Assembly (NCBI GenBank): GCA_036558765.1
Contig: DATBEY010000363.1
Location: 1-42,801 of the forward strand
Origin: Candidatus Binatia bacterium
GTDB taxonomy: Bacteria > Desulfobacterota > Binatia > UBA9968
DNA: 42,801 nt
Reading direction: 5' to 3'
The notes under the pieces are model-generated. The model was not told where the DNA came from. It did not search any database and worked only from the letters and a program-made list of their open reading frames with translations. Position numbers and translations under genes: made by a program. This document shows, one piece after another, positions 6,095-42,801 of the stretch (positions are counted from its first letter, which is position 1; every line of letters starts with the position of its first letter).

Positions 6095-6106
6095 AACTAA
6101 AAAAAT

Positions 6107-8554: not shown

Positions 8555-8570
8555 TGGCAGTTAGTTTGCT
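8555..8570 (+). promoter_or_regulatory. Sigma54-type -24/-12 promoter element
   Basis: TGGCAG-TTAGT-TTGCT matches TGGCAC-N5-TTGCW with correct GG/GC spacing. It lies about 100 nt upstream of the XRE-like ORF that precedes pilM. Confidence 0.45.
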
Positions 8571-8673
8571 TTAACAGCGCAACGACTTAGCACAATTAGC
8601 TATAATTAAGGCAAATTTTAGTTGACCCGGAGCTGTCTGATACAAGCTCGGCCAACTTCTGCGCGTCCAGACT

Positions 8674-8892: not shown

Positions 8893-8893
8893 G

Positions 8894-11222: not shown

Positions 11223-11228
11223 AGAGCG

Positions 11229-11840: not shown

Positions 11841-11845
11841 CGAGA

Positions 11846-27924: not shown

Positions 27925-28767
27925 TTATTCCGCGCCGACTTTCGGACGCCACTTATCAAAGCGGGCCTCGTAACGATCGATGACATCGGTCAGTACCATA
28001 CCGCAGATCGCGAAGATCAAAACACCGACAAAAACTTTATCCGTCTGGAAAGTGGCGCCGGCGACGGTGATCATGAAACCGATACCGGCGGTGGCCGCAT
28101 ACAGTTCACCAACCATAACGCCGATCAGCGCGCGGCCAACGGCAAGACGGAGACCGGTCAATATAAAAGGAACCGTCGAGGGGAGGACAACAGACTTGAA
28201 GATCTGCCATTCGGAAGCTCCGAAACTGCGTGCCGCCGTGAGGAGATTCGCGGGCGTGGTTTTGACACCATCGCGGGTGTTGATCAAAAGCGGGAAGACG
28301 GCGCCAAGAAAAATGATTCCGACTTTCGACAGGATTCCGATACCGAGCCAGATAATAACCAGGGGCAGCAAGGCAACGCGGGGCGTGGCATTCATCGCGT
28401 TCACGAACGGGTCGCAGACGTAGGCGAATTTTTTATACCAACCGATAGCGATGCCGAAAGGAATGGCGACGACGACCGAGAGAAGATATCCCCAGACGAA
28501 CTCGATGCCGCTAACATAAAGGTCATTCCAGATTTCGCCCGATGCGAACATTTGATAGCCGGCTTTGACGATCAGCGAGGGCGCACTCATGAACATCGGG
28601 TTAATCAACTGGAAGGTATTGCCGCACAGTTCCCAAATCGTCAGGAATATGAATACAGCGATTGTGCCAAGAATCTTACGTTCTTGATTGAGATAGAACT
28701 TGTACGCGGCCGATGCTTCCGCGACTCGGATGTCTAGCAATTGTTCTTCTTGAGCAGCTTGAGCCAT
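27925..28767 (-). CDS. ABC transporter permease, NitT/TauT (nitrate/sulfonate/taurine) type
   Basis: 280 aa with 6 TM segments and the EAA-loop AARSFGASEWQIFKSVVLP. No adjacent ATPase or binding-protein gene. Confidence 0.85.
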   Translation of the reverse strand: MAQAAQEEQLLDIRVAEASAAYKFYLNQERKILGTIAVFIFLTIWELCGNTFQLINPMFMSAPSLIVKAGYQMFASGEIWNDLYVSGIEFVWGYLLSVVVAIPFGIAIGWYKKFAYVCDPFVNAMNATPRVALLPLVIIWLGIGILSKVGIIFLGAVFPLLINTRDGVKTTPANLLTAARSFGASEWQIFKSVVLPSTVPFILTGLRLAVGRALIGVMVGELYAATAGIGFMITVAGATFQTDKVFVGVLIFAICGMVLTDVIDRYEARFDKWRPKVGAE

Positions 28768-28930
28768 AAATGACCCTCCCTGTAAAAACCGGTTAATGGT
28801 CTGTTAAAGTTGCCAGCCTGCGAACCACTACCAAAAGGCTACAGGGTTGTCAACACATTTCAAGTAGGCTTTACAGAAACTTTCACGCCCGAACAAAATA
28901 GTTTTTCGCCGCCTGATCGAGGCCGTAAAC

Positions 28931-28959
28931 TTGACAATGATTAATGTATTAACTATTTT
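28931..28959 (+). promoter_or_regulatory. Sigma70-like promoter for the radical SAM cluster
   Basis: TTGACA (28931-28936), a 17-nt spacer, then TATTTT (28954-28959). The spacer holds the near-palindrome TTAATGTATTAA. SD AGGAGA lies 6 nt before the ATG at 28995. Confidence 0.5.
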
Positions 28960-28994
28960 TATCCACAATAATCTCTCCGGTACTAGGAGATCTC

Positions 28995-30476
28995 ATGAAC
29001 CTCCTGTTTGTGACACCCCCAATGGGCAACTGGGCACCGTGGGGCGAGCGGCATCTGGCTGTAAATCCGTTGTACGCGCAGGTCGCGGCCTTTATTCGCG
29101 AGAAAAGAGCCGCGGATGTTGCGGTCCTCGACTGCCGGGCGCTCGCCCTCGACGACGAGCAAATGATCGACGCGATCGAAGAGCGCCGGCCAGACGTCGT
29201 TTTTTTCGGGGCCATGATTGCGGCTGCCGGCGGAGCAGCGCAGCTTAATCGCTTTCACGCGGCAATGAAGTTGATCAAGCGATCCCGGCCGCAAACCATT
29301 ACGATTGGCGGCGGCTTGATGTACACGGCGGTGCCGCAGAAGATCATGACGGAGAACCCGCAACTCGACTTCGCTATCGTCGGCGTGTTTGGCGATAACG
29401 AGTATCCGCTCTGGGAGCTCCTCGAAGAGCTCAAGAAACCGGCGCCGAATTTTGCCGGGATCCGGGGCCTCGCCTGGCGTAAAGGGGGCGAGATTGTGCT
29501 CAATCCAGCTCGGCCAGTGATCAGCGATCTGGACGAGCTGCCGATGCCCGCCTACGATCTCTTTCCGATGGACAGGTATTATGGTTACTCGGTGATTCCC
29601 AACTACAATGAAGCGGTGACTTCGCGCGGCTGCGAAGGCGCATGCCATTTTTGCTACGAATGGTGGCTCGTCGATCCACGCAACCCGCGCGATTTCAGCT
29701 CCCACCGGACGCGCGGTGGTCGCGCGGTAGCGGAGGAGATGGAGCTGCTCAACAAAAAATATGGTGTCAAAGCTTTGACCTTCATGGATGATGACTTCAA
29801 CTCGGACCGGCAAAAAATGGTGGATTTGGTCGAAGCGCTGGAAGAAAAAAAGCTCGACGTCAGCTGGTTCTGCCTGAGCCGTGCGCAGAATCTGATCCGC
29901 GATGCCGACCTAATCCCGCGCTTGCGCAAAGTCGGACTCTATCAGGTTCTGATCGGGATCGACGGCGGCACCGACGAGGAAATCGCCGAAGCGCGCAAAG
30001 GTAACATGAAAGTCGGCGTCAAAGAACTGAGAGAGCTGATCCAATTTCTTCGTAAAAATGATATTTCAACCATCTCGACTTATTTAAACGGATTCTGGGA
30101 GGATGATGAAGCGAAGGTTCGCCAGCGCGCCAAAGCCGTGGACGAGATCGATCCGGACATCGTGATGATTCAATTGCTGAACCCAATCCCCGGCTCGCCG
30201 ATCTATAAGAAGGCGGTGAAGGAAAGTCTGATCGAAATCGACAATCTGAGCCTTTATGACCTCGAACACTGCGTGATGCCGACTAAATATCTGAGCCGCC
30301 AAGAACTCGGCGAGCTGACGGGCTGGGCTTTCCAAAACTTCTATAGTAAGCCAGGTCGGATCGATCGAATCTTGAACGGTTATAGCTCGCCCTACGTGAA
30401 GATGAAATTTCTCTCGTTCAAAAACAACGCCGCGAAATACGAAAAAGGCGCGTCGGAGGACGCCGTCGCCATCTAG
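28995..30476 (+). CDS. B12-binding-domain radical SAM enzyme (class B type)
   Basis: 493 aa. N-terminal Rossmann-like cobalamin-binding-type domain (LLFVTPP..., VVFFGAM, TITIGGG), then the CX3CX2C cluster motif SRGCEGACHFCYE. Confidence 0.85.
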   Translation: MNLLFVTPPMGNWAPWGERHLAVNPLYAQVAAFIREKRAADVAVLDCRALALDDEQMIDAIEERRPDVVFFGAMIAAAGGAAQLNRFHAAMKLIKRSRPQTITIGGGLMYTAVPQKIMTENPQLDFAIVGVFGDNEYPLWELLEELKKPAPNFAGIRGLAWRKGGEIVLNPARPVISDLDELPMPAYDLFPMDRYYGYSVIPNYNEAVTSRGCEGACHFCYEWWLVDPRNPRDFSSHRTRGGRAVAEEMELLNKKYGVKALTFMDDDFNSDRQKMVDLVEALEEKKLDVSWFCLSRAQNLIRDADLIPRLRKVGLYQVLIGIDGGTDEEIAEARKGNMKVGVKELRELIQFLRKNDISTISTYLNGFWEDDEAKVRQRAKAVDEIDPDIVMIQLLNPIPGSPIYKKAVKESLIEIDNLSLYDLEHCVMPTKYLSRQELGELTGWAFQNFYSKPGRIDRILNGYSSPYVKMKFLSFKNNAAKYEKGASEDAVAI

Positions 30477-30484
30477 CCAACCGT

Positions 30485-31264
30485 GTGACTGTGGCGGATC
30501 GTTCAAACAGCGAAGCACTGAGCGGGAAGATCGCTCTGGTAACCGGCGCAAGCCGGGGCATCGGCGCGGCGGCAGCGATTCGGCTCGCGCAGCGCGGCGC
30601 GGCCGTTGTGGTGAATTATCACCAAAACCACGCCGCGGCCCAGAAAGTTCTCGACCAGGTGAAAGCGAGCGACGCGAGAGGGATAATTTTTCAAGCCGAT
30701 ATGACCCGCGGCGAGGAAATCGAAAGAATGGTGCAGGCGGCAGAACGCGAGCTTGGCGCCATCGATATTTTGGTCAACAACGCCTACTTTCCGTTTCAGG
30801 TGGGATCTCTTCACGAGCTTACGTGGGGTGATTTTCACCGCGCAGTGGAGCACGAGCTTTCGGCTTTTTTTCATTGTGTCAGTGCGTGCTTGCCCAAAAT
30901 GAGAGAAAAAAAAGCGGGGCGGATAATTGTGATTAGCTCGCGACTGGCGCAACAGCCCCTGCCTAGGATGGGGGCTTACGCCGCTGCAAAATCGGCGCTC
31001 GAATCGATGGCGGATACGATGGCCATCGAGTTGGGACCACTTGGAATAAGCGTGAATGTCGTCACGCCTGCCTTCACCTTGACGGACGCCTCGCTGATTA
31101 TGCCCGAGGCGTATCGAGAGCGGGTCAAACAAACGCGGCCCCTCAAGAAACATCTCTACCCGGAAGATGTCGCGGGCGCGGTTGCATTTCTCGCGGGCGA
31201 CGAAGCCGCGATGCTCACCGGCAGTCATATTTTAGTTACCGGCGGCAGTCATTTGCAGCTCTAA
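30485..31264 (+). CDS. Short-chain dehydrogenase/reductase (FabG-like)
   Basis: 259 aa, GTG start. TGASRGIGAA cofactor motif, an NNAY segment at the position of the classical SDR NNAG motif, and catalytic YAAAK. Confidence 0.88.
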   Translation: MTVADRSNSEALSGKIALVTGASRGIGAAAAIRLAQRGAAVVVNYHQNHAAAQKVLDQVKASDARGIIFQADMTRGEEIERMVQAAERELGAIDILVNNAYFPFQVGSLHELTWGDFHRAVEHELSAFFHCVSACLPKMREKKAGRIIVISSRLAQQPLPRMGAYAAAKSALESMADTMAIELGPLGISVNVVTPAFTLTDASLIMPEAYRERVKQTRPLKKHLYPEDVAGAVAFLAGDEAAMLTGSHILVTGGSHLQL

Positions 31265-31338
31265 AAGATCAGGATTAACGTTCAACAGTCATCCTTCGCT
31301 CGGGCCTGCCCTTTGGCCAGCAGGCTGTTTGCAATCAC

Positions 31339-32823
31339 ATGCTGTCGCTCGACGAGATCGTTGCCGGCTTGACTGAGATCGTCGGCCCTCAACGGGTTTC
31401 CACCAATCCGATCGACAAGATCAATTACCAGCACACTCTCGCCTACGGCGCATACCGTGCACTGCCCGATGTCATTGTTCGTATCGAATCCGACAGTACC
31501 GGCCGGCATAAGGTTGCCGAGATTCTCCGTTTCGCGAACGAGCACACTATTCCGATCGTCGCCAAAGGTGGCGTTGGGATGGGCATCAGCTCGCCATTAA
31601 AAGGCGGGCTACTCCTCGACATGCTCGGCATGGATAAAATTTTGGAAGTTAACCCAACCACGCAGTATGTCATCGCCGAGGGTGGCGCGAGCGTTTATGC
31701 GATCCATGGAGCGCTCAGAAACTACGGTCTGATGCTACCGAATTTCGGAACTTACGGGCCGGCCGTAGTGATCGGCGCGATGATCAACAAGGGCGGGATC
31801 GGCTACGGTATGACCCGGTATGGCTGGATCGCAGACATGGTGCTCGGGCTGGAAGTGATTCTCGCCAACGGAGAAACTATTCGGCTCGGCGCCCTGGCCA
31901 ATGAGGGAACCACTTTTGGACCGTTTCAAAAATGGATTCATTTGCCGGATCTGCTCGGTCTTTTCACCCTCGCTGCCGGCTCCATGGGCATCATCAGCAA
32001 GGTCTGCCTCCGAGCCATTGAAGGCAAGCGCGAGTGGCTGCACGATTACTGCTATTCGTTCCGCCGCGATCAGCTGGAAGAAGCGCAGGATGCGCTGACG
32101 CAACTCGTCAAAGGCGAAATCGTTTACGATATCCATTTCACCGATCGTTGGCAGTACCACTGGCCGATGGAAGAGGGGCTTTACGACAAACGCAAAATTC
32201 CCGATGACGGCTGGTTTTTTTTAAAGACCATGCTGATGGCGCGCGCCAGCGATGAACTACAATACAAAGAAAAACGGATGCGGCAAATTTATCGTGATGC
32301 CGGCGCAGTCGACGTCCCCGAAATCGCCGAAAAGGGAATGGGCGCCAAAGCGCAAGAGCATGGGCTTCACGGCTGGCCGGATTGGCACGTAATGGGTCCG
32401 GACGGCTGGTGCGGCTCGGTGGTGCGTCACACCGGAATGTTCGCGGTTACTTCCAAGATGTACCCGCTGACCTTTCTAAAGGAGATGTACGATCTCGACG
32501 AGGCTGCCAAGCGTGAATGTGGACTTTGGGACCCGGAACATTCACCCCAGCACGATAGCTACGTGACACGTGATTTTGCCATCAAAGAAGAGTATTTCGT
32601 GTTCTACAATCCCTACGATGACGAAGATGTCGCAAAACTGCGGAAGTGGATGGGGATGGTGCAGCGATTCAGCAATGAGCGGGGCGTTGTCTGGACCGCG
32701 CCGACCTTGAGCACGAAGGGGCCGCTGCCTTATGGCAGGCTGGGCAATCTGTATGACCTCATTAAAGAAATCAAGCAACTGGTCGATCCTAACAATATTT
32801 TGAACCCCGGTGCACTCTACTAA
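31339..32823 (+). CDS. FAD-linked oxidase (PCMH/VAO-type FAD-binding domain)
   Basis: 494 aa. N-terminal FAD_binding_4-like region (IVAKGGVGMG..., VIAEGGAS) and a C-terminal LVDPNNILNPG tail typical of GlcD/VAO-family oxidases. Weak SD, so the start is uncertain. Confidence 0.75.
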   Translation: MLSLDEIVAGLTEIVGPQRVSTNPIDKINYQHTLAYGAYRALPDVIVRIESDSTGRHKVAEILRFANEHTIPIVAKGGVGMGISSPLKGGLLLDMLGMDKILEVNPTTQYVIAEGGASVYAIHGALRNYGLMLPNFGTYGPAVVIGAMINKGGIGYGMTRYGWIADMVLGLEVILANGETIRLGALANEGTTFGPFQKWIHLPDLLGLFTLAAGSMGIISKVCLRAIEGKREWLHDYCYSFRRDQLEEAQDALTQLVKGEIVYDIHFTDRWQYHWPMEEGLYDKRKIPDDGWFFLKTMLMARASDELQYKEKRMRQIYRDAGAVDVPEIAEKGMGAKAQEHGLHGWPDWHVMGPDGWCGSVVRHTGMFAVTSKMYPLTFLKEMYDLDEAAKRECGLWDPEHSPQHDSYVTRDFAIKEEYFVFYNPYDDEDVAKLRKWMGMVQRFSNERGVVWTAPTLSTKGPLPYGRLGNLYDLIKEIKQLVDPNNILNPGALY

Positions 32824-32896
32824 GTGTTTTATTCAACATTCAAGTTTAAAGAAGAGATGGTCGCGCGCAGGACGAGCGCCGACGTGAGGAGAAAAT

Positions 32897-33691
32897 ATGG
32901 GACTTGGGAGACAAGACTTTTCCGGTAAGCGAGTCGCCCCGCAGGAAGCCGACGCGGTGATCGCAGATTTGAAAAAATATTTGGCCGAAATTTCCGATCG
33001 CTGGCTCATCAGGGGGCGCTTTCACAGCGATATGGCGAATGGCAGTTTGCCGATGGAAGCAATTAAGGTCTTTTGGCAGAACTGGTACGGCTTCGTTGCC
33101 GAAATCAACAATTTTCACGGTGTCGCCTACCAGCGACACCTGCCGTTTTTCAAGCGCCACCCCGAGCTGCAAAAACATTTTGCCAATCACGTCGCCGACG
33201 AGATGATTCATCCGAAACCGCCGGGGCACATTCAGATCGTGCTCGAGCAGGGGCGTAACTTTGGACTCACGAACGACGAAATGATCGATTACGAAATGCT
33301 GCCGGAGTGCCGGGCCTTTCTCGAGTATTATCGGGGTGTGCTCTATGAAGGCACGATGATCGAATGGTGGGCGTCGTTCTGCGTCGAGGAAGCAGTTGGT
33401 CACTGGGCCAAGTTCTTCGGCGGCGCGCTACGAAAAAATTATAAAATCCCGGAAGAGAAGATCGTCTACTTCCGGATGCATGCCGAAGCCGATCTCGAAG
33501 AGCACGACGGTGTCATGGCCCATGCGGATCTCGATTGGACGGTGCTCAAAAAAATGCTCGAAGAAGGAAAGGCGGAGACGCGACCGGGGTTCAATTTGGA
33601 ATACTGTTTGCGCACAGGCACGGCATATTTTGCCTGGTTTTTTGAGGGGGTTTACCAATACGTGAAAAAAGAAGGTTTGTATAAAGTGTAA
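32897..33691 (+). CDS. Heme-oxygenase-like fold, iron-containing redox enzyme family (PqqC/TenA/CADD-like HDO)
   Basis: 264 aa, all-helical composition. Candidate carboxylate/His ligand motifs are HVADEMIH, CVEEAVGH and HAEADLEEH. Good SD GAGGAG. Confidence 0.55.
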   Translation: MGLGRQDFSGKRVAPQEADAVIADLKKYLAEISDRWLIRGRFHSDMANGSLPMEAIKVFWQNWYGFVAEINNFHGVAYQRHLPFFKRHPELQKHFANHVADEMIHPKPPGHIQIVLEQGRNFGLTNDEMIDYEMLPECRAFLEYYRGVLYEGTMIEWWASFCVEEAVGHWAKFFGGALRKNYKIPEEKIVYFRMHAEADLEEHDGVMAHADLDWTVLKKMLEEGKAETRPGFNLEYCLRTGTAYFAWFFEGVYQYVKKEGLYKV

Positions 33692-33692
33692 C

Positions 33693-34721
33693 ATGACCGT
33701 AAACGAAAACCGGCAGGAGCTTTCGCCGCGGCCGCTGATGCGAATCCTTGGCGATTTCGCCAATAGCCAGATCCTCGACGCTTCCATCGAATATGATTTC
33801 TTCAGCCTGATTCACGGTGGCAATCACTCTGCTGACGAAATCGCGCGCGCGGCAGGCACGGATCCGCGCGCGACCCGCATTGTCCTCGATAGCTTGCCTG
33901 CCCTGGGAGTGGTGCAAAAACGCGATGGCGGATATTTTCTCACGCCGATGGCGGATGCATTTCTGGTTAAAGGCAAACCGTCCTACGTCGGCGACTTTCG
34001 TCATGTCGCCTTGGCGCTCTGGGACGGCATGGCGCATCTCAAGGAGTCGCTCAAAACCGGTAAGCCGCTGAGCCGCATGGACCCCGGCGCCGAGCTAAAA
34101 GTCTGGGAAAAGCTCGTGCTCGGGATTATCGTCATCGCCGAACCTGCCGCCAAAGCGCTCTGCGATCTTTTGAAAATCGGCATCGACAAAAAAGGACTCA
34201 AGGTGCTCGATATCGCCGGCGGCTCGAGCATTTTCGGGATGACGATTTTGACCCGCGACTGGACCGCTGAAGTAACGCAGCTCGACTGGCCCAATGTAAA
34301 CGCGGTCGCGAGAAAAGCTAACCAAGCGCGCGGGCTCGAAGGCAAGATCCGCTTCATCGACGGCGAACATCATACGGCGCTCATCGAAACGAATCATTAC
34401 GATTTAGTGCTTGCCAGCAATTTTTGCCGCTTCGAATCACCGCAGGGAAATCAAAAACTATTCGCGAAAGCGCACTCGGCGCTCAAGGCGGGCGGAATTC
34501 TTGTCGTCAATGACTTTGTGCCCAACGAAGAGCGCACGGAGCCGACGTTTGCTTTGCGTTTTTCGGTGTACACCTTGACCCACACGCCCCAAGGCGAGTG
34601 TTGGACGCTCTCTCAATATGCCGATTGGTTGGAAGAGACCGGCTTCCGTTCGATCGAAACTTATGGGGACATTCCGAACACGCTACCGGGAACGACGCTG
34701 ATCCTGGCAAAAAAAACTTAA
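33693..34721 (+). CDS. SAM-dependent O-methyltransferase, family 2 (with N-terminal winged-helix dimerisation domain)
   Basis: 342 aa. SAM motif VLDIAGGSSIFG and acidic-loop FIDGEH. N-terminal region of about 100 aa is typical of Methyltransf_2 enzymes. The ATG is 1 nt after the upstream stop. Confidence 0.8.
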   Translation: MTVNENRQELSPRPLMRILGDFANSQILDASIEYDFFSLIHGGNHSADEIARAAGTDPRATRIVLDSLPALGVVQKRDGGYFLTPMADAFLVKGKPSYVGDFRHVALALWDGMAHLKESLKTGKPLSRMDPGAELKVWEKLVLGIIVIAEPAAKALCDLLKIGIDKKGLKVLDIAGGSSIFGMTILTRDWTAEVTQLDWPNVNAVARKANQARGLEGKIRFIDGEHHTALIETNHYDLVLASNFCRFESPQGNQKLFAKAHSALKAGGILVVNDFVPNEERTEPTFALRFSVYTLTHTPQGECWTLSQYADWLEETGFRSIETYGDIPNTLPGTTLILAKKT

Positions 34722-34907
34722 CCAACTCTGTGGAAGAAAGAAGCCCTCGATACGGCCCTGCGCGCCTACTCGGGCATTCGGGAATTTTATCGTATATTGC
34801 CGAGAGGCAGAATTAAGGCGAATGCTAGAGGAAACTTCTACTTCTATAGTTCAGATGACCAACAGCTTGCTTTGGTGGTACCGAGTTATGTTGGCGGAGG
34901 AGTTCAG

Positions 34908-36011
34908 ATGAATCAGCCAGTTCAAATCATTGATGGAGATGGGCATATCTTCGAAGATGGCGATGGTATCGCTCGTCATTTTCCGTTTAGTGCTGCCGGA
35001 GCGCGTTTACGGAGCGGCGTATTTCCATTGAATAGCCATATCCAGTATTCGCTGACGCGCACGCCGCCCGGTGCTTTCGCTACTACACCCGACGGGCGGT
35101 TCAAAAATCCCGGCCGCGAGGGATGGATCGAGTTCATGGACCAAATCGGAATCGGTCATGCGGTCCTTTTTCCCACCGCCGGGCAACGGATCGGACGAAT
35201 TGTCGATCGCGACTACGCCGTTGGCGCGGCGCGCGCATACAACGATTGGTTGGCCGAAACCTATCTGCGGCGGGACTCACGCTTCAAAGGCATCGCCATC
35301 GTGCCGATGCACGATGCGGAAGCGGCACTGGCGGAATTGCACCATGCTTACAGCGAATTGGGTATGTGCGGCGTCCTATTTCCCGCAACGGGAGTACACT
35401 TAAATCTGGGCGCAAAGCCTTACTGGCCGGTTTACGCCGAGGCGGCTCGGTTGGGTTGTCCAATTGTCGTTCACGGCGGCGGACACTGGGACCTCGGCAT
35501 GGAAACGATGAACGTCTCCACCGGCGCCAACGCCATCGGCCACCCGATGTCTTTGGCCATCGCCTTGGCGGAAATGGTGCTCAACAATCTGTTCGATCGT
35601 TATGCCGGCTTGCGAGTTGCTTATCTCGAAGGCGGGCCGCTCTGGTTTTTGATGACGCTCGAGCGTCTTTCGCGCTCGTTCGAAGCAGGAACGCCGATCA
35701 ATCCACGCGGTGAACTGCTCAACTTGCCGGAGGGAAAAACCGTTGCCGATTACATTCGCGCGCTAGTGCAAGCGGGCCGGCTGGTGGTGGGAATCGAGGG
35801 GGGCGAAAGCGATCTCGCCTACGCGATTCAAGTCGCAGGCGAGCAAGCGTTCATGTTTTCCTCGGACTTTCCGCACGAGGTCAATGTCCAGACGGTTAAA
35901 AAGGAAATTCACGAATTGTGCGAGCGAAATGAAATCAGCGACAGCGCCAAACGAGCAATTCTCCGCGATAATGCCGAGCGCTTTTATCGGCTGAGCGAGA
36001 TCTCGAACTAA
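34908..36011 (+). CDS. Amidohydrolase-2 family metal-dependent hydrolase/decarboxylase (ACMSD/LigW-like)
   Basis: N-terminal IIDGDGHIFE (DxH metal motif), internal HGG, and C-terminal FSSDFPHE. I chose the ATG at 34908 (SD GGAGGAG upstream) rather than the ORF-track start 34797. Confidence 0.8.
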   Translation: MNQPVQIIDGDGHIFEDGDGIARHFPFSAAGARLRSGVFPLNSHIQYSLTRTPPGAFATTPDGRFKNPGREGWIEFMDQIGIGHAVLFPTAGQRIGRIVDRDYAVGAARAYNDWLAETYLRRDSRFKGIAIVPMHDAEAALAELHHAYSELGMCGVLFPATGVHLNLGAKPYWPVYAEAARLGCPIVVHGGGHWDLGMETMNVSTGANAIGHPMSLAIALAEMVLNNLFDRYAGLRVAYLEGGPLWFLMTLERLSRSFEAGTPINPRGELLNLPEGKTVADYIRALVQAGRLVVGIEGGESDLAYAIQVAGEQAFMFSSDFPHEVNVQTVKKEIHELCERNEISDSAKRAILRDNAERFYRLSEISN

Positions 36012-36021
36012 CAGCGAAAAT

Positions 36022-36481
36022 CTACATTTTGAAGCCGTGCAGCCTCGCCGGGTTATCGACGATAATTTTGCATAGCAGCTCCGTATCGCCATCGACATAA
36101 CGATACAGCAGTTCAACCTCCTCAGCGTCATTCATCATGCGCTTTGTCCATTGCGGGTGCGGCCAATGCCAATGCCGCGGTAGCGATCCCGGTCGTCCAG
36201 ACTTTGAAGCGCGTCCAGAAGGAGCCGATGATCGCTGCGGTAAATTGCGCTGTGGACTATCACGCCGCGATCGAAACCGATCGCTCGGTGCGTTCGTTGG
36301 GCCTCGGTAAGTGTGGCGCTCTCGATGGGTGGATATGGCGGATTTGGCCTCGGGGGAAATTTTTCGAGACCCTCATAGATGCGAAATTGACAGTCACAGC
36401 TCTTGCGCGGCGCGCTGGCAGGGGCATGCGCGGCTGCTTGTCCCACTCGTAAATTTGCTCTCCGGCTCGCGCCATTGTCAT
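36022..36481 (-). pseudogene. Decayed amidohydrolase-2 (LigI-like lactonase family) remnant: internal deletion plus frameshifts
   Basis: One frame gives SCDCQFRIYEGLEKFPP...RGVIVHSAIYRSDHRLLLDALQSL..RYRGIGI, an N-terminal third with the usual His residues replaced. A different frame gives HWPHPQW...ELLCKIIVDNPARLHGFKM-stop, the canonical extreme C-terminus. The roughly 150 central residues are missing. Confidence 0.6.
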
Positions 36482-36595: not shown

Positions 36596-36620
36596 CCAGT
36601 CATAAGGAGGACGTAAGAAT

Positions 36621-37061
36621 ATGGAACTGGTTAGATGGGAACCCTTTATGAATTTTGGCAATTTACACTCTATGTTGAACGATTGGTTGGATGGTGACAG
36701 CGATCGATCGCCGGCGCAGCCGAGCAAGTCGACGTGGTATCCTGCGGTGGACGTTCTTGAAGGAAAAGACGCTTACCTGATTCATGCTGAGCTGCCAGGC
36801 ATGAAGAAAGAAGATATCCACGTCGAAGTCAAGGAAGGAAACTTATTGCTCAGCGGCGAACGCAAAGCCGATGCGCTTGCCGAAGGCGTCAAATACCGCC
36901 ATGTCGAGCGGGTAGCCGCTAAATTCTGGCGGTCTTTTAGCCTGCCTGAGACCATCAAACAGGACAGCATCGAAGCGGCCTACAAGGACGGCGTTCTGGA
37001 AGTAAGAATCCCGAAGGCTGAGGAAGCGAAGCCGCGGCAGATCGAGATCAACGTTCATTAA
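36621..37061 (+). CDS. Small heat-shock protein (Hsp20/alpha-crystallin family)
   Basis: 146 aa. AELPGMKKEDIHVEV and YKDGVLEVRIPK alpha-crystallin-domain motifs. Confidence 0.93.
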   Translation: MELVRWEPFMNFGNLHSMLNDWLDGDSDRSPAQPSKSTWYPAVDVLEGKDAYLIHAELPGMKKEDIHVEVKEGNLLLSGERKADALAEGVKYRHVERVAAKFWRSFSLPETIKQDSIEAAYKDGVLEVRIPKAEEAKPRQIEINVH

Positions 37062-37088
37062 CTGAGCGGTTGTAGTCGAAGCAGAAAA

Positions 37089-37115
37089 GGGAGGCGAAAT
37101 CGCCTCCCTTTTTTT
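37089..37115 (+). terminator. Rho-independent terminator after hsp20 (potentially bidirectional)
   Basis: GGGAGGCG-AAAT-CGCCTCCC followed by seven T. It is preceded by AAAA, so it could also terminate the convergent minus-strand gene. Confidence 0.85.
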
Positions 37116-37122
37116 ACCCAGG

Positions 37123-37551
37123 TTATTTTCTTGTCGAACGTTGCCAGCAGCGGCGACATTGTCGGGAGCCGAAGGTTTTGTTTCCGCCGCACGCCGGACA
37201 GTGATATGCCCGGGGATTTTTGCGGGTTTTCTCGATCAGCTTGAGGGGCGTTAGCTCCAATCGTAATGCACGCACCTGTTGATCGTTGGCTCGTTCGGGG
37301 CACTCGCGCCGTCCCCGGAGCCAAGGCCAGAAAAACGGCACGTTATCCGGTTTGGTCAACGATGTGATCTTCAGCTGCCGGATCGTTCCGCAGCCGAACT
37401 GTTTTTGTAGCTCCGCGCATTTCATGAGCGCCATTCCGCTCATCTTCATCGGACACCACACCATCCCACTGGGATAACCCCAATCGTCCAGCGCTATTCG
37501 ACTATCGTTCGGGCGGTTGTTGAATCCGGCGCTTCGGATCATGGTCGACAT
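37123..37551 (-). CDS. Hypothetical protein with C-terminal zinc-ribbon (CPAC...CRRC)
   Basis: 142 aa with no family recognised. Trp/Cys-rich, C-terminal CPACGGNKTFGSRQCRRC, basic tail. Confidence 0.4.
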   Translation of the reverse strand: MSTMIRSAGFNNRPNDSRIALDDWGYPSGMVWCPMKMSGMALMKCAELQKQFGCGTIRQLKITSLTKPDNVPFFWPWLRGRRECPERANDQQVRALRLELTPLKLIEKTRKNPRAYHCPACGGNKTFGSRQCRRCWQRSTRK

Positions 37552-37648
37552 TGTATGTCAGTATGCGCAAAATCTTTGCGATGACAAGACAAAAATAAAA
37601 AAATCGGTGAATTTATACGAGGTCCGACACCGTCCAAAAGTTTGCAAA

Positions 37649-38338
37649 TCAGGCGATCCCGGTGTCGTCGAACACGGAGCCCTCTCGAACGCGCAGCACT
37701 CGAGATGCGCAGTCTCGTGCGAACTCTTCGTCATGGGTGGCCACTACCAGCGTACGACCATTGCTCGTCAAACCGCAAAGAAGATCGCGAAGCTCCGCAC
37801 GGCGATTCGCATCGAGGGACGCCGTCGGCTCGTCCAATAACAAAACGGGCGGATCCACCGCTAGGGCACGGGCGATCGCAACGCGCTGTGCTTCGCCGCC
37901 CGAGAGCTCGCGCGGGAACGCATGCGCCCGATGTTCAACGCCGAGTGCCGCAAGCAATGCGCGAGCGCGGTTTTCCGCTTCTCGTTGGGGCACTCCCCGC
38001 GCGTAAACCGGGGCAAGCCAGACGTTTTTGAGCACCGAAAGATGTTCGAACAGATGATGGAATTGAAAAACCATGCCGACTTTGGCGCGAAGATCGCGAA
38101 GCCGTGCGGGCGGATTTCCGTTAGCACCGTTTATCGCGATCCCTTCGACCTGCACGGTTCCTGACTGAAAGGTCTCGAGCCCGGCAATCACGCGAAGCAT
38201 AGTCGTCTTGCCGACGCCGGACGGACCCATCAGGGCAACTAACTCGCCACGGTAAACCTGGAAGGTCACCCCCGCAAGGATTTGACGGCTGCTGCGAAGC
38301 AGCGTGACTTGTTGCAAACTCAGCACGCAGTGATTCAT
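37649..38338 (-). CDS. Polar amino-acid ABC transporter ATP-binding protein
   Basis: 229 aa. Walker A GPSGVGKTT, signature LSGGEAQRVAIARAL, Walker B VLLLDEPTASLD. 4-nt overlap with the upstream permease gene. Confidence 0.9.
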   Translation of the reverse strand: MNHCVLSLQQVTLLRSSRQILAGVTFQVYRGELVALMGPSGVGKTTMLRVIAGLETFQSGTVQVEGIAINGANGNPPARLRDLRAKVGMVFQFHHLFEHLSVLKNVWLAPVYARGVPQREAENRARALLAALGVEHRAHAFPRELSGGEAQRVAIARALAVDPPVLLLDEPTASLDANRRAELRDLLCGLTSNGRTLVVATHDEEFARDCASRVLRVREGSVFDDTGIA

Positions 38339-39849
38339 GCCGTTGAAAACCTCCAGCGCTGCTCGAGCCGACGCGCCAGTGTCGCGAGCGGTAGCGACAT
38401 GGCGAGATAGAGAGCGGCGCAGAGCAACCCTGGAATGACCCAGCTACCAATATTCGTGGCAAATATTTGTGTTTGTTTTGTGAGCTCGAAAACCGTGAGC
38501 ACTGAAACCAACGAAGAGTCTTTGAGCAATGCAATGAAATCGTTGGTCATGGGCGCCAACGCGAAGCGTAGGGCCAAGGGGCCGCGCACAAGCGTCAGCA
38601 CCCGGGTCTCGCTCAAGCCCAGAATACGCGCGGCCTCCAGTTGGCCCACGGGTACGGCTTGCAAAGCACCACGGTAAATTTCGCTCTCGTACGCGGCATA
38701 GTTCAGTCCAAGGCCTAGAAGCGCCGCGCCAAATGCCGGCAGACGGATCAGATCAGCGATGCCGTAATAGAGGACGAATAACTGCAGCAGGATCGGCGTA
38801 CCGCGCATGAGCTCGACATAGCCTGTTAAAAGAGAGCGCATGAGGCGACTACCGTAGACGCGGCCGGTGGCGATTGAAACCCCAAGGACGATTGCCAAAA
38901 ACATCGCTAAGCAGGAAAGCACAATCGTCACTAGTGAGGCCCGCAGAAGCGATGGTAAATAACCGAGCAGCGCTTGCCATGCCGTGAGCGCCATCGGCGA
39001 CGCTTGAAAGCCGGTAACGGCCGCCACCGGTTGCGCCGCGAGCAGTCGGGCGTAAAGCCGCGGCTGGTCATCGTTCCAAACACGCCATTTGCGGAAAATA
39101 CTCTCCAAGCTGCCGTCACGCATGGCGGTGCGCAGAATGTCATTGATCTGGTCGCGGAGCGCGCTGTTGCGTACCGCCAGAATGCCGACGTAATGACCAA
39201 TGGCGACGCTCTGTGGTTGAATTGCGAAACCGGACAAATTACGGGCGCGCCGTTCCGCTAGAACATTGTCCAAAAGCACGGCATCGATGCGGCCGATCAC
39301 GAGATCACTGTAGGGGTGAACGTCGTCGTCGTAAGAAACCGGTTGTACGCCAAAGTCACGCTCGGCGTTCAGTAAGATCTCATACGCGATCGTACCGCCG
39401 AGGGTGCCGACGCGCCGGCCTTTGAGATCGGCGAGGGTGCGAAACCGGGCTCGGTCGGCCTTGCGGACGCTCAAGACTTCGCGAAACTCATAGTAGGGAA
39501 TTGTTGGCGCCATTGTGGCGCGGCGCGCGGGCGTATCTTCGATGCCGCTGAGACCCATCTCGGCATCGCCGCGCTCGACCGATTGATCGATCGAGGTGAA
39601 GGTGATGTTGACGAACCGGGGTACGCGATTAATCTTGCGCGCAATGAGCTCGGCGATTTCGACATCGAAACCGACGAGTTGATCCGGCTGGCGGGGATCA
39701 GCTTCGACAAAAGGCGCTCCGCCTTCCGGATCGCCCGCCCAACGAAAGTCGCCTGCTGACGCGGCCGCGCCCACGTCAGCCGTCCGCAAAAAAGCCGCGG
39801 CAACTAGGCCCACGGCCAAATGACGCAGGCTGCTGCGCAGGAACTTCAT
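38335..39849 (-). CDS. Fused periplasmic substrate-binding domain (SBP family 3) + HisM/GlnP-type permease
   Basis: Signal peptide MKFLRSSLRHLAVGLVAAAF (ATG at 39849; ORF-track start is 39906). An SBP_bac_3-like N-terminal half (FDVEIAELIARKI...). The C-terminal permease carries the EAA-like loop AARILGLSETRVLTLVRGPLA. Confidence 0.8.
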   Translation of the reverse strand: MKFLRSSLRHLAVGLVAAAFLRTADVGAAASAGDFRWAGDPEGGAPFVEADPRQPDQLVGFDVEIAELIARKINRVPRFVNITFTSIDQSVERGDAEMGLSGIEDTPARRATMAPTIPYYEFREVLSVRKADRARFRTLADLKGRRVGTLGGTIAYEILLNAERDFGVQPVSYDDDVHPYSDLVIGRIDAVLLDNVLAERRARNLSGFAIQPQSVAIGHYVGILAVRNSALRDQINDILRTAMRDGSLESIFRKWRVWNDDQPRLYARLLAAQPVAAVTGFQASPMALTAWQALLGYLPSLLRASLVTIVLSCLAMFLAIVLGVSIATGRVYGSRLMRSLLTGYVELMRGTPILLQLFVLYYGIADLIRLPAFGAALLGLGLNYAAYESEIYRGALQAVPVGQLEAARILGLSETRVLTLVRGPLALRFALAPMTNDFIALLKDSSLVSVLTVFELTKQTQIFATNIGSWVIPGLLCAALYLAMSLPLATLARRLEQRWRFSTA

Positions 39850-40135
39850 TGGGAGATGAATGGTGGAACGATTCAGCTGCGGCGCCCCGATTATCCAGCA
39901 AAACAACGAAATGCCAGCGCAATCTAGCTATGACCGATTCCGATGTCAATCGGCATGCGTCGCGCCGGTCCACAGGCAAAGCGTGAGCGAATTGTCGCCT
40001 CGTTCCGAGCTAGCCTACAGCGACGCAAATGGTCGAACGGAGTACCGAGCGTCCCTCACCAACGGTTCACATGAGATCGTTTGCACAAGGCTCGCGAAAC
40101 CGGTATGCAACGCCGTTGCCGGCCGCAATAGACGG

Positions 40136-41035
40136 ATGAAAATTTTGTCGCAAGGAGGGTGCTCCAAAGCAATGATCGACCAATTGGTAGCTCGTTTGGA
40201 CCGCGCCCCGAAGGGACTGCTTACGTTGGCGGCTCTCGCACTGGTTTTTCTGATTGGCATCGTCGATTTTTTGACTGGCCTCGAACTTCATTTGGTATTT
40301 TTCTACATATTTCCGATCGCGTTGACGAGTTGGTTTACTGAGCGGAGAAGCGCGATCTTAATCGCTCTGCTCTGCAGCCTTATGGATTTTTATGTGAATT
40401 GTCTGGCCGGCATGCGGCAATCATCGATATTCGTGACCGCATGGAACTTGGCCATGCGGATAGGGCTCTCAAGCTCGATTGCGTGGAGCTTAGCTGAGCT
40501 CAGGTCCAAGCTGGACCAGATTTCAGAGGTGGCAAATCGTGATTTTCTTACGGGCCTGCCCAACGGGCGCGCCTTTTATGAACTGGCCGGAGGCGTAATG
40601 ACGCGAGCTTTCGGGCTCGAACCTTTGACTCTCGCTTGCATCGATATCGAAGGGTTTAAATGGGTCAATCACCGCTTCGGCTATTCCTTTGGGGATCAGA
40701 TATTGTGCACCATCGCGCATTCCATACGGGAGAGTGTGCCGCAACCGGAGCTGGTCGGTAGAATCGGCGGGACCTCCTTTGCCGTGCTGTTGCCGAACGC
40801 AGCGCCAGATGGAGCGCGCTTCATCTTGGAAAAAATGCACGGCAGGCTTCGAACCGATCGCAAAAAATATGGTCAACCCGTGAAGTTTTTCATCAGCGCG
40901 ATTGCCTGCAGCAAAGCGCCGCGAACGATTGCCGAACTTTTGTATCAGGCTGAAGCGCGGATGAGCCGCATGAAGCACAACCGGAGCGATGCCGTCGAGA
41001 TCGATATTATCGACGCGGCGCGCTCCCTGAACTGA
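40136..41035 (+). CDS. Membrane-anchored GGDEF-domain protein with degenerate active site (GGTSF)
   Basis: About 4 TM segments, then a GGDEF fold (RDFLTGLPNGRAF, IDIEGFKWVNHRFGYSFGDQIL, RIGGTSFAVLL). The start is uncertain: 40136 or 40172. The ORF-track start 39860 adds about 90 non-membrane residues with no support. Confidence 0.75.
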   Translation: MKILSQGGCSKAMIDQLVARLDRAPKGLLTLAALALVFLIGIVDFLTGLELHLVFFYIFPIALTSWFTERRSAILIALLCSLMDFYVNCLAGMRQSSIFVTAWNLAMRIGLSSSIAWSLAELRSKLDQISEVANRDFLTGLPNGRAFYELAGGVMTRAFGLEPLTLACIDIEGFKWVNHRFGYSFGDQILCTIAHSIRESVPQPELVGRIGGTSFAVLLPNAAPDGARFILEKMHGRLRTDRKKYGQPVKFFISAIACSKAPRTIAELLYQAEARMSRMKHNRSDAVEIDIIDAARSLN

Positions 41036-41145
41036 GCTGCCTCCACAGAATTATTCACTCCAAGCTAATCAGCAACGGATTCGAAGGGAGAAGATCGGTG
41101 CGGATGGTCAACAGCCCGCGCGAGCTGGACGTCAGAGGTGGGAAG

Positions 41146-41589
41146 TTAGGCGACTTTTAAGCGCTTGAGCACGGAGTCATTGCCGATGACATGGAATTCC
41201 ATGTAATCAATCAGACGCCGCGCAACGAAAAAATATCTTTGCAATTTTTCGGCGGAAGAATGATCAGTCGAGCCGCTCAATATGGGAGTGCTCGCGGCGG
41301 CTGCCTTTTTCGACCGATATGATTCAATTTCTTCGACCAAGCCTTGCAAAGCTGGCGGCAAGATCTCCCAAACGCCAGTGGACTGGCACATGGATACTAA
41401 ATGGCTATGATCATGCTGCCGAGGTAAGCTACCGTGGTTTTCGATAAGCGCCGCTTTGATCGCCTTCTCCACGGCGTCAGCTAATTTGTCGAAGTCACTG
41501 GCTGCGGCGTGCTGCCCGCTGATTTCCTCAGGAACCAAACGAATCTTGTCTCGTGCCTCACGCAACCACGGCTCCGCGTAAAAGCCCAT
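41146..41589 (-). CDS. HEPN-domain-like protein
   Basis: 147 aa. Helical pattern ADAVEKAIKAALIENHGSLPRQHDHSHLVSMC ... LVEEIESYR resembles HEPN (A..EKalKAll...g....tHdl..L ... y..RY). Confidence 0.45.
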   Translation of the reverse strand: MGFYAEPWLREARDKIRLVPEEISGQHAAASDFDKLADAVEKAIKAALIENHGSLPRQHDHSHLVSMCQSTGVWEILPPALQGLVEEIESYRSKKAAAASTPILSGSTDHSSAEKLQRYFFVARRLIDYMEFHVIGNDSVLKRLKVA

Positions 41590-41741
41590 CCAATCCTCCG
41601 CAGCTCACATTGATTTTACGAGATATGATAAGGGCATGGCAGGTTTTTGGCAAGCAAATGGTTTTCCGCACGGGCGAGCAACCTGGACAGAACGATCGCC
41701 GATATGTGGCAGAGCTTGACTCCGCCGGTCGATGGCCTACT

Positions 41742-41770
41742 AAACAAAAAGCCCCCGGAATCCCGAGGGC
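41742..41770 (-). terminator. Rho-independent terminator after the DapA-family gene
   Basis: On the minus strand, the GCCCTCGGGATTCCGGGGGC hairpin is followed by TTTTTGTTT. It sits 30 nt downstream of the stop at 41800. Confidence 0.6.
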
Positions 41771-41799
41771 TTTCGTTCGGAGTATGTGCGGTGTCTTGA

Positions 41800-42759: not shown

Positions 42760-42801
42760 CTTTTCCTCCCTTTTTCAAAGCGTTCACCCGTCGTTTGAGT
42801 G

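Follow-up and report, generated by a model that had tools for sequence, protein, structure and literature searches.

A conserved five-gene operon headed by a class B radical SAM enzyme in Binatia, with a candidate role in small-molecule tailoring

Do the genes that stand beside a B12-binding radical S-adenosylmethionine (SAM) enzyme in Binatia form one unit, and is that unit part of bacteriochlorophyll (BChl) synthesis, as its annotation implies? The question is raised by a stretch of 42,801 nt from Candidatus Binatia bacterium (assembly GCA_036558765.1, contig DATBEY010000363.1), referred to here as the window, in which positions 28931 to 36011 hold six genes on one strand. Binatia (Binatota) are abundant uncultured bacteria of soil and peat that are known only from genomes. 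Homologues of bchE, bchQ, bchR and bchU have been reported as ubiquitous in Binatota, in a pathway that is incomplete, bchM and bciA/bciB/bchXYZ being among the steps it lacks (Murphy et al. 2021, PMC8262859). The radical SAM enzyme (rSAM) at the head of the window genes belongs to a family labeled 'BchE' in IMG, and the presence of this family in a self-contained five-gene operon offers a testable alternative to cryptic pigment synthesis. An earlier note on this DNA, made from the sequence alone, had described a cryptic six-gene redox and methylation cluster. The comparisons presented here support a conserved operon of five of these genes, placed outside the BChl pathway, for which tailoring of a small aromatic or heteroaromatic molecule is tentatively proposed.

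The six plus-strand open reading frames (ORFs; 28995-30476, 30485-31264, 31339-32823, 32897-33691, 33693-34721 and 34797/34908-36011) are separated by 8, 74, 73, 1 and 186 nt, the last figure assuming an ATG start at 34908. ORF calls, Pfam and a promoter scan bear out the earlier note on the reading frames, on how they are spaced, on the domain families and on the promoter. Six same-strand genes side by side are, taken alone, no more than chance would give. The promoter and the five genes that prove to belong together, a block of ~5.8 kb, are as follows.

28931-28959 (+): operon promoter of sigma-70 type, TTGACA and TATTTT with a spacer of 17 nt; no other site in the region matches as well (10/12)
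28995-30476 (+): first gene, class B (B12-binding) radical SAM enzyme, rSAM, 493 aa (PF02310, PF04055)
30485-31264 (+): classical FabG-like short-chain dehydrogenase/reductase (SDR), 259 aa (adh_short_C2, 183 bits), 8 nt past the rSAM gene
31339-32823 (+): FAD_binding_4 flavoprotein of the PCMH/VAO superfamily, here FADox, 494 aa (PF01565, 97.8 bits)
32897-33691 (+): predicted heme-oxygenase-like dimetal oxidase/oxygenase (HDO), 264 aa, borderline in Pfam and assigned by its AF2/Foldseek fold
33693-34721 (+): family-2 SAM methyltransferase (OMT), 342 aa, with a dimerisation domain (PF08100, PF00891)

The comparison set consisted of 80 loci from species-representative genomes together with several metagenome contigs, compared with the window proteins by tblastn; loci are numbered L001 onward. 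The genes for rSAM, SDR, FADox, HDO and OMT are colinear and on one strand in 16 related Binatia loci (L001/L012, L002, L003, L010, L011, L013-L017, L019, L020, L022, L025, L026 and L035; L001 and L012 are one record, and L002 and L003 are near-identical). Six more contigs end within the cluster and agree with this gene order as far as they reach. The cluster is found in at least two unrelated upstream contexts. The commonest consists of an ArnT-like glycosyltransferase (GT), BacA, DedA, sometimes UPF0182, and a permease, while in L022, L025 and L026 a TonB-dependent receptor (TBDR), TonB and an AEC-family transporter take their place. Compared with L002, identity is 83% for rSAM, 86% for FADox, 89% for HDO, 79% for OMT and 70% for SDR, against 72% for the neighboring BacA and 47% for the ArnT-like protein; because the cluster proteins are thus generally more conserved than these neighbors, selection on the cluster appears to be strong. 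Co-localisation in related genomes, on which the earlier note had staked its reading, therefore holds for five genes, and not for six, as the Amidohydro_2 gene that comes last in the window adjoins the cluster in none of the 16 full loci. Since the five genes are colinear in 16 loci and two contexts, lie 1-74 nt apart and keep their promoter in 23 loci, it is well supported that the block moves as a unit and represents a genuine conserved operon with its own promoter.

Restriction of the operon to Binatia-type genomes is also well supported, within the limits of these databases. Several loci (L014, L016, L026 and others) carry the labels Verrucomicrobiia, Udaeobacter, Terriglobales or Zixibacteria; mis-binning or mislabeling is probable, because the fetched loci L014, L016 and L026 are 80-87% identical and have the same five genes. 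On the 1.97-Mb contig of L001/L012 (12269-15701), gene calls and tblastn show the FADox and OMT genes split into fragments, probably through frameshift errors in assembly, or else by pseudogenisation. No orthology match of the block to a characterised operon was obtained, with NCBIfam equivalog scores far under their cut-offs and solved structures distant, and nothing on this cluster or its enzyme combination turned up in the literature. The gene order, which the earlier note had not recognised from any characterised pathway, matched no characterised operon here.

The promoter does not depend on its motif score, as a consensus promoter scan of the region was at background (6 sites vs 5.7 expected). 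In 23 related loci of both context types, the rSAM gene is preceded by the same stretch of 30 nt, CTTGACAATCGTTwAgGTATTAAATATTTT, and the sequence flanking this block is not conserved on either side; retention of the block between variable flanks confirms the promoter by phylogenetic footprinting. Its spacer (28937-28953; TTAATGTATTAA / TTTAGGTATTAAA) is conserved as well as its hexamers and contains an inverted repeat, TTAAT-GT-ATTAA, which makes it partly palindromic, and may be an operator for some regulator. The 5' untranslated region is only ~30 nt long. In L002 and L003, the conserved promoter lies ~200 nt 5' of the annotated rSAM start (L002:9797-10003) vs ~35 nt elsewhere, reflecting either a longer leader or a different start codon. 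Within the five-gene block, no promoter or terminator signal rises above background. An Rfam scan of the window matched tRNA-Pro as its only family, with no riboswitch before the operon. Domain scans of the cluster flanks found no polyketide synthase (PKS), nonribosomal peptide synthetase (NRPS), terpene synthase, regulator or ABC ATPase, and no credible precursor-peptide ORF was found in the window cluster region, in line with what had been noted before. Small ORFs in 28770-28994 were considered as precursor peptides and rejected, having TTG starts, overlap with promoters and non-conserved sequence.

The rSAM enzyme combines an N-terminal B12-binding domain (PF02310, 47 bits, cut-off 32.1) with a radical SAM core (PF04055, 45.9 bits, cut-off 29.5), the architecture of class B. 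Its motif CEGACHFC is the CxxxCxxC of the core, and C213, C217 and C220 are invariant in relatives down to 32% identity. Evidence that the enzyme uses cobalamin is circumstantial, coming from PF02310 and from neighboring uptake genes: in L022 and L025, two cobalamin riboswitches per locus precede TonB and TBDR genes that directly adjoin the cluster (L025:8803-8981(-), 7679-7846(-); L022:8779-8960(-), 7519-7766(-)). Uptake genes under such control would fit B12 scavenging for rSAM, or a real B12 requirement. Among NCBIfam models, BchE (TIGR02026) is the best match at 164.3 bits vs a cut-off of 481.35, and a P-methyltransferase family, HpnJ and others score far under their cut-offs; the best PDB sequence match is AprD4 (7.8e-11). 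More than 120 database clusters are 83-96% identical to rSAM, those with names being mostly Candidatus Binatia metagenome-assembled genomes (MAGs), and of the genome loci, L008 from a Binatia MAG comes nearest (96% identity). Relatives at 54-56% identity are solitary, without a cluster. The closest representatives from a library clustered at 50% identity share 50, 42, 41 and 40% with it, and the bulk of class B follows at ~30%.

The two predicted redox enzymes that follow give fewer clues to a substrate. The SDR, colinear with the cluster in every intact locus, has FabG, 7-alpha-hydroxysteroid dehydrogenase and glucose dehydrogenase as its best PDB matches, which are generic and provide no substrate clue. 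FADox belongs to an isolated family, with homologues at 68% identity or more in Binatia, one at 45%, and then 28%. Its FAD-oxidase_C score (20.7 bits) is under the cut-off of 21.2. The FAD_binding_4 and cap-domain architecture of PCMH/VAO-type enzymes is found in it by PF01565, Foldseek and the 1dii profile. In the AF2 model (pLDDT 76.9), the predicted fold is about equally near to D-lactate dehydrogenase (D-LDH) and to VAO/EUGO/PCMH (TMq 0.74-0.79), and in profile searches PCMH (1dii) matches over the full length with E 1.5e-51, followed by D-LDH (1e-48) and alkyl-dihydroxyacetone-phosphate (alkyl-DHAP) synthase (1e-28). In PCMH, Y95, Y473 and R474 form a Tyr/Tyr/Arg triad that binds the phenolate. 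This triad is absent in FADox, which has M81, T453 and A454 at these positions in a profile alignment of low identity that gives moderate confidence. A role as a PCMH/VAO-type 4-alkylphenol oxidase was rejected on this ground; the former description as a PCMH/VAO-type FAD-linked oxidase is thus right as to superfamily and fold, and not as to a 4-phenol oxidase. HxGDGNxH is the metal-binding motif of GlcD and D-2-hydroxyacid dehydrogenases, and since it is missing in the window protein and in all 21 aligned homologues, assignment as a GlcD/D-LDH-type enzyme was likewise rejected.

The fold of HDO is predicted with greater confidence (AF2 pLDDT 94.5, pTM 0.90) than its Pfam scores would suggest, which are 28.2 bits for Haem_oxygenas_2 (cut-off 28.9) and 26 bits for TENA_THI-4 (PF03070, cut-off 22). 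In Foldseek, the best match is the Fe/Mn enzyme CADD (CT610; TMt 0.83-0.85), then PqqC, TenA, UndA, BesC and HrmI, and the heme-oxygenase-like helical fold is found with probability 1.00 to CADD, PqqC, UndA, BesC and HrmI. Across 25 homologous sequences of 32-87% identity, E69, E102, H111, E164, E165, H195, D199, H203 and H209 are invariant. The pattern resembles E...E/H...E...HxxxDxxxH, and these putative ligands would suit a dimetal site better than the chemistry of TenA or PqqC. TenA thiaminase II requires a catalytic Cys. HDO has no invariant Cys and no NCBIfam match to TenA or PqqC, with PF03070 at only 26 bits, and assignment as TenA/PqqC was rejected. Homologues of ~50% identity occur in loci with several HDO paralogues, TonB-type receptors, a fumarylacetoacetate (FAA) hydrolase, a flavin reductase, a cupin and a gene of the dihydrodipicolinate synthase (DHDPS) family. 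Three such loci (L004, L005 and L007, about 1-12800) hold 3-4 HDO paralogues, two CarboxypepD_reg-type outer-membrane receptors and also a luciferase-like monooxygenase, and in protein P0170 of this group a small cupin is fused to HDO. A 247-aa Binatia HDO paralogue in L088-L090 (about 2100-9800) lies beside NMT1, a substrate-binding protein (SBP), an Asp/Glu racemase-family gene and an Amidohydro_2 gene, a set that is reminiscent, by analogy, of N-heterocycle or pyrimidine salvage or catabolic modules.

The OMT gene, 1 nt past the HDO gene and colinear in the 16 loci, encodes a protein whose dimerisation and Methyltransf_2 domains (43.8 and 36.3 bits) both exceed their cut-offs, as expected of family 2. 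The best PDB match is the uncharacterised 2r3s (6e-32, residues 12-329), then DsyB, RedM, MfnG and SibL. The BchU/CrtF model (TIGR02716) gives 32.4 bits vs a cut-off of 276.1 and aligns only with residues 26-93, the dimerisation domain. The acceptor atom may be O, C, N or S, the name 'O-methyltransferase' being based on the family.

Variant loci show where the unit can be divided. In L023 (rSAM 77% identical), rSAM is followed by OMT only, L009 has the cluster without OMT, and in L086 OMT is paired divergently with rSAM. Two loci join rSAM orthologues to decarboxylases. In L027 (rSAM 70%; 9419-12999), a UbiD-family decarboxylase gene starts 8 nt after rSAM, and an IS200-type transposase gene is directly upstream. 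L029 (rSAM 79%; 24-13554) is an array with all genes on one strand and three UbiD copies, in the order xanthine-dehydrogenase-family large and FAD subunits, UbiD, rSAM, SBP, permease, NMT1, UbiD and UbiD. L091 (2118-16542), from a MAG labeled Candidatus Acidoferrales, lacks rSAM over a distance of 10 kb around SDR-FADox-HDO-OMT, which is 66-81% identical; nearby are xanthine-dehydrogenase-family genes, a trio made up of Amidohydro_2, NMT1 and a divergent HDO paralogue, a Glyoxalase gene, two SBPs and a fused permease. In L092 (FADox 68%), SDR-FADox is followed by a CCG-domain protein and lies among MlaA and MlaC genes, and in L093 (FADox 45%) a molybdopterin-domain (MoCoBD) gene is 26 nt upstream of the FADox homologue. 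The operon thus consists of separable sub-modules, namely rSAM, SDR-FADox and HDO-OMT.

Outside Binatia, rSAM homologues of 38-43% identity were found in Omnitrophota, including Candidatus Velamenicoccus archaeovorus LiM (L044, NZ_CP019384.1), where L040-L087 show a large conserved same-strand cluster (e.g. L075:3197-20822 and L059:566-17218). It comprises two FabF-like ketosynthases (459 and 396 bits), an acyl carrier protein (ACP), a long-chain acyl-CoA-ligase-like enzyme, the B12-binding rSAM and an ApbA reductase; a PF04199 cyclase, an SRPBCC protein, a major facilitator superfamily (MFS) transporter, an SDR and an Amidohydro_2 gene also occur, the last adjoining rSAM in ~14 loci. SDRs of the same BLAST family as that of the window are present, directly upstream of the rSAM homologue in L045, L059, L067 and L077. 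The Omnitrophota rSAM scores 166.5 bits against BchE, likewise under the cut-off. These clusters were at one stage regarded as aromatic type II PKS and were revised to a FabF/ACP lipid-type cluster after the NCBIfam scan. They also contain a nucleoside phosphorylase (PNP_UDP_1), an IF-2B isomerase, a class II aldolase (with SCP2) and an aldehyde dehydrogenase. This set looks like the 'DHAP shunt' for 5'-deoxyadenosine and methylthioadenosine, and by that analogy it might supply the radical SAM step of an unknown lipid-type pathway, or dispose of what that step leaves behind.

Three further features border the operon.

27925-28767 (-): TauC/SsuC/SaoP-like ABC permease (BPD_transp_1), monocistronic and divergent from the operon promoter
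28813-28854 (-): putative divergent promoter/leader block of the permease, with TTGACA at 28848-28853
34908-36011 (+): Amidohydro_2 protein of ACMSD/LigW type (PF04909, 105 bits), outside the conserved unit

The permease matches the NCBIfam models SaoP and TauC, both under cut-off, and its gene is followed by a terminator-like hairpin with a 15-bp stem (27898-27865, minus strand). In closer Binatia loci, it is 82-96% identical and adjoins the cluster; in L022, L025 and L026, the transporter in its place is of the AEC family (Mem_trans). The promoter/leader block (CCAGCCTGCGAACCAGTACCAAAAGG...TTGTCAAC) is conserved in 12/13 aligned upstream regions and may bind an unidentified regulator. The permease is a possible accessory transporter of the operon, a functional link that we infer. 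The earlier note had recorded no dedicated transporter ATPase, and none lies in the flanks; it had overlooked the transporter gene that diverges from the promoter in both main contexts. On the other side, the Amidohydro_2 gene starts 186 nt past OMT with its own ribosome-binding site (GGAGGAG before ATG 34908). In related loci, its place downstream is taken by genes that the window lacks, namely a two-domain Glyoxalase gene of the vicinal oxygen chelate (VOC) type and genes for an M24 peptidase and a DHH phosphoesterase. Membership of Amidohydro_2 as a distant sixth component through its Omnitrophota counterparts was considered and rejected, as it is only 20-25% identical to them vs 39% to a generic unrelated paralogue. 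Beyond it, a 103-aa ORF at 36135-36446 (-) has weak (26-bit) similarity to the N-terminus of 4-sulfomuconolactone hydrolase and may be a remnant of another amidohydrolase-family gene; this remnant-like ORF suggests that the junction has been rearranged in this genome.

GC content is even throughout the window, and positions 1-24000 and 36600-42800 are core genome. Core genes in the rest of the window include a Na+/H+ exchanger gene, rpe, rsmB, fmt, def, priA, pilMNOPQ, aroC-aroK-aroB-aroQ, and genes for a VWA protein and ExbB-ExbD-TonB, and tRNA-Pro(CGG) is at 2388-2464 (-). Two Lsa25.6-like repeat proteins, Hsp20, an amino-acid ABC transporter with fused SBP-permease, a GGDEF protein, a HEPN protein and a DHDPS-family gene are also present.

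What could the operon do? Starting from the observed gene content, conservation, promoter and folds, and from non-membership of the BchE, BchU and PCMH/VAO 4-phenol families, we infer a substrate class, an order of steps and a product fate. The reading we tentatively favor, with a confidence that stays short of even, is B12-dependent oxidative and methylating tailoring of a pre-formed, possibly imported aromatic or heteroaromatic molecule. Candidate substrates would be a phenol or a benzoate- or pyridine-type acid, made elsewhere in the cell or imported via the promoter-adjacent transporter. The rSAM would functionalise an unactivated C-H bond, either by methylation, which is commonest in its class, or by a BchE-type sequence from CH2 through CHOH to C=O. 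Interconversion of alcohol and ketone, or dehydrogenation of a side chain, could fall to the SDR and the flavoprotein, the CADD-like dimetal HDO might perform an O2-dependent hydroxylation or oxidative cleavage, and the family-2 methyltransferase would cap the newly made hydroxyl or a position on the ring.

An aromatic or heteroaromatic substrate is suggested because the best profile of the flavoprotein is PCMH and the best structure for HDO is CADD, because the matched characterised members of the family-2 methyltransferase fold act on small-molecule acceptors, because rSAM orthologues of 70-79% identity lie in arrays with UbiD, and in L029 also with xanthine-dehydrogenase-family and uptake genes, and because the pairing of rSAM and OMT recurs (L023, L086). 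That the substrate is pre-formed is hinted at by the transporter gene adjoining the promoter in both main contexts and by enzyme families that are those of small-molecule tailoring. We lean slightly toward a product that is retained (cofactor-like, quinone-like, or salvaged and remodeled) and not mineralised, because of the terminal methyltransferase, the housekeeping-like conservation, the lack of an adjacent regulator and the core neighborhood (fmt-def, priA, pilMNOPQ, aroCKBQ). A broader version of this idea, that the operon is a near-universal, primary-metabolic B12 route of Binatia to a lineage-specific cofactor-like, quinone-like or lipid molecule, and the true identity of the reported 'bacteriochlorophyll genes', is rather unlikely as a whole.

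Several observations weigh against such tailoring. The flavoprotein lacks the phenolate triad, which weakens the 4-alkylphenol idea, and the nearest non-Binatia relatives of rSAM (Omnitrophota, 38-43%) belong to FabF/ACP/acyl-CoA-ligase clusters, which points to an acyl chain. HDO homologues of ~50% identity keep catabolic-looking company (TonB-type receptors, FAA hydrolase, flavin reductase, cupin), and genes for hydroxylases, decarboxylases and uptake are found in the variant Binatia loci. It is awkward that one operon should encode both an rSAM sensitive to O2 and an HDO that requires it. From the variants L091, L009, L023 and L092, it also follows that the five enzymes need not treat one molecule in a fixed sequence. 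The earlier note had put a cofactor or quinone-like modification ahead of a catabolic role; the UbiD, xanthine-dehydrogenase-family and uptake genes of the variant loci make a catabolic or salvage alternative likelier than that note allowed, and the choice between the two is close.

That alternative, a doubtful but serious possibility, holds that the operon is a catabolic or detoxifying funnel, in which an aromatic or N-heteroaromatic compound taken up by the cell, for instance a phenolic from plants or lignin or an acid of pyridine or pyrimidine type, is turned into a ring-cleavage substrate, to be finished by nearby decarboxylases, molybdenum hydroxylases and a VOC-type dioxygenase; we regard catabolism as nearly as likely as a retained product. 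The divergent transporter gene beside the promoter in both main contexts is consistent with it, as are the arrays already described: the molybdenum-hydroxylase-type subunits (xanthine-dehydrogenase family), UbiD copies, SBP, permease and NMT1 on one strand with rSAM in L029, the genes of the same family, the Amidohydro_2-NMT1-HDO paralogue trio, two SBPs, permease and Glyoxalase around SDR-FADox-HDO-OMT in L091, and the MoCoBD gene next to the 45% FADox homologue of L093. Further points in its favor are a two-domain VOC (Glyoxalase) gene of ~300 aa that is convergent downstream of OMT in at least 8 loci, the Acidobacteria-type HDO loci with TBDR-like receptors, FAA hydrolase, flavin reductase, cupin and a DHDPS-type aldolase, and the lack of a scaffold enzyme. 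However, we know of no catabolic funnel that employs either a class B radical SAM enzyme or a family-2 O-methyltransferase. None of the main-context loci has a regulator of LysR, IclR, MarR or GntR type beside the cluster, a peripheral route of catabolism would not usually be conserved this strongly, and Binatia are rich in Amidohydro_2, NMT1, TctC and UbiD paralogues, which may make some of the adjacencies background. A distinctly unlikely third reading takes its cue from Omnitrophota: rSAM would methylate or cyclise a carbon of a membrane lipid or acyl chain, with FabG- and alkyl-DHAP-like redox steps by the SDR and the flavoprotein, HDO acting on a fatty acyl chain as UndA does, and the methyltransferase making a methoxy group. 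Beyond the two FabF-like ketosynthases, ACP, acyl-CoA-ligase-like enzyme, FabG-like SDR and SRPBCC protein that accompany the Omnitrophota homologues, this reading draws on the FabG-like window SDR, on alkyl-DHAP synthase among the full-length profile matches of FADox, on UndA among the structural matches of HDO and on SDR-FADox among MlaA and MlaC genes in L092. Yet the alkyl-DHAP synthase match (1e-28) is far weaker than those to PCMH (1e-51) or D-LDH (1e-48), family-2 methyltransferases rarely act on lipids (the exception, CrtF, has a model score of only 32 bits), no Binatia locus contains an acyl carrier, acyltransferase or ketosynthase, and 40% identity between class B enzymes leaves the substrate unfixed.

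The genes upstream invite another idea, namely modification of an envelope glycan or polyprenyl-linked sugar together with the ArnT-like GT, BacA and DedA, in which FADox and SDR would form a DprE1/DprE2-type epimerase and rSAM and SDR an AprD4/AprD3-type deoxygenation pair. The window and many loci do have ArnT-like GT, BacA, DedA and UPF0182 genes upstream, rSAM finds its best PDB match in AprD4 (7.8e-11), a weak DprE1 match was obtained (24 bits), and the SDR is tightly coupled to rSAM (8 nt). This idea is very unlikely, as the envelope genes are missing upstream in L022, L025, L026 and L091 with the cluster still there, belong to other transcription units, are less conserved (47-72%), and the DprE1 and AprD4 scores are far under cut-offs of 500. 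That the five genes have no common function and are neighbors only through genome kinship is highly improbable: the full-set loci do all belong to one class and the sub-modules do occur apart, but order and promoter are kept while genes on both flanks change, the block is more conserved than its neighbors, and the gaps are 1-74 nt with no internal promoter or terminator above background. Least credible of all is the reading implied by the IMG annotation and by what has been published on Binatota, tailoring of bacteriochlorophyll or another tetrapyrrole by a BchE-type cyclase and a BchU-type methyltransferase. It has in its favor that BchE is the best NCBIfam match of rSAM, that BchU/CrtF is among the methyltransferase matches, and that homologues of the four bch genes are reported as ubiquitous in the phylum (PMC8262859). 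Against it, BchE reaches 164.3 of 481.35 bits, BchU 32.4 of 276.1 over the dimerisation domain only, the same report (PMC8262859) finds the pathway incomplete, and no other bch gene was found among the scanned genes of the 42.8-kb window, selected related loci and 10-kb flanks (the bch-gene and flank checks covered the window genes, selected related-locus genes and the Pfam-annotated flanks of L001-L003). That the operon lies outside the BChl pathway is, on these comparisons, well supported. It is plausibly the source of at least the Binatota bchE calls and perhaps of the bchU calls, and the IMG label probably contributes to the patchy BChl pathway reported for this group, a likely annotation error that is spreading through metagenome databases.

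If the product proves to be cofactor- or quinone-like, the operon would represent a B12-dependent pathway that is new and on which selection acts strongly in a major lineage of soil bacteria; should it serve degradation instead, it would be one of few cases, to our knowledge, in which a class B radical SAM enzyme does so. Under either reading, five genes provide a compact target for heterologous expression.

Among known systems, the closest in outline is BchE, the anaerobic cyclase of Mg-protoporphyrin IX monomethyl ester, with the BChl c tailoring enzymes BchQ, BchR and BchU, which likewise join a B12-domain radical SAM enzyme to a family-2 methyltransferase with a dimerisation domain. In vitro, BchE oxidises CH2 to CHOH to C=O and cyclises, with oxygen from water (PMC13598231), and the CH2-to-C=O oxidation is chemistry that the SDR or the flavoprotein could complement. 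The Binatia operon differs in its scores (164 vs 481 and 32 vs 276), in the lack of bch genes and phototrophy, and in the addition of SDR, flavoprotein and HDO. The BChl c and ubiquinone parallels drawn in the earlier note are therefore analogies only. For ubiquinone, orthology failed: UbiE-family models give 17-19 bits, under cut-offs, and the window has no UbiA or UbiD. Coq7 also has a fold different from that of HDO. The UbiD-family genes beside the rSAM orthologues of L027 and L029 are a lead only for a ubiquinone-type link. In BzaC/BzaD (anaerobic synthesis of benzimidazole, the lower ligand of B12) and CysF/CysS (cystobactamid), an O-methyltransferase and a class B radical SAM methylase act sequentially on a hydroxylated aromatic ring. 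The pairing of rSAM and OMT in the window, L023 and L086, and the B12-uptake genes beside the L022 and L025 clusters, recall these systems, whereas the BzaD model scores 75 bits vs a cut-off of 450, bzaA/B/F, cobT and a cobalamin riboswitch before the operon are lacking, and CysS matches rSAM at 1e-5 over only ~100 residues.

Other parallels concern single parts. ThiXYZ-TenA carries out thiamine-pyrimidine salvage, and its likeness lies in a TauC/ThiX-type permease, a TenA-fold protein and an amidohydrolase, with NMT1/ThiY-type proteins in variant loci; HDO, however, has a metal-ligand-like set and no invariant Cys, and the window holds no ThiY or ATPase, and the resemblance is one of parts only. 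CADD of Chlamydia (CT610), which makes p-aminobenzoate from tyrosine, is the best structural match to HDO, which has a conserved Glu/His/Asp set of putative ligands on its core helices, although identity is 16%, the CADD-family model gives 26 bits vs a cut-off of 200, and HDO has a distinctive invariant PxPPGH loop that bears H111. FADox shares the predicted two-domain fold of PCMH/VAO and GlcD/D-LDH enzymes and the full-length PCMH profile, and in L092 its homologue is followed by a CCG-domain protein as GlcF follows GlcD; it differs from them in lacking both the triad and HxGDGNxH, with ~20-28% identity outside the lineage. The Omnitrophota cluster has the same rSAM subfamily (38-43%), an SDR of the same BLAST family and an Amidohydro_2 gene, and differs in having no FADox, HDO or OMT and in bringing its own ketosynthases, ACP, ligase, MFS transporter and shunt-like genes. 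In these comparisons, no characterised counterpart joined a radical SAM enzyme of class B to a predicted dimetal oxygenase like CADD, an orphan flavoprotein of PCMH fold and a family-2 methyltransferase; the enzyme families are known, and it is their combination that is new.

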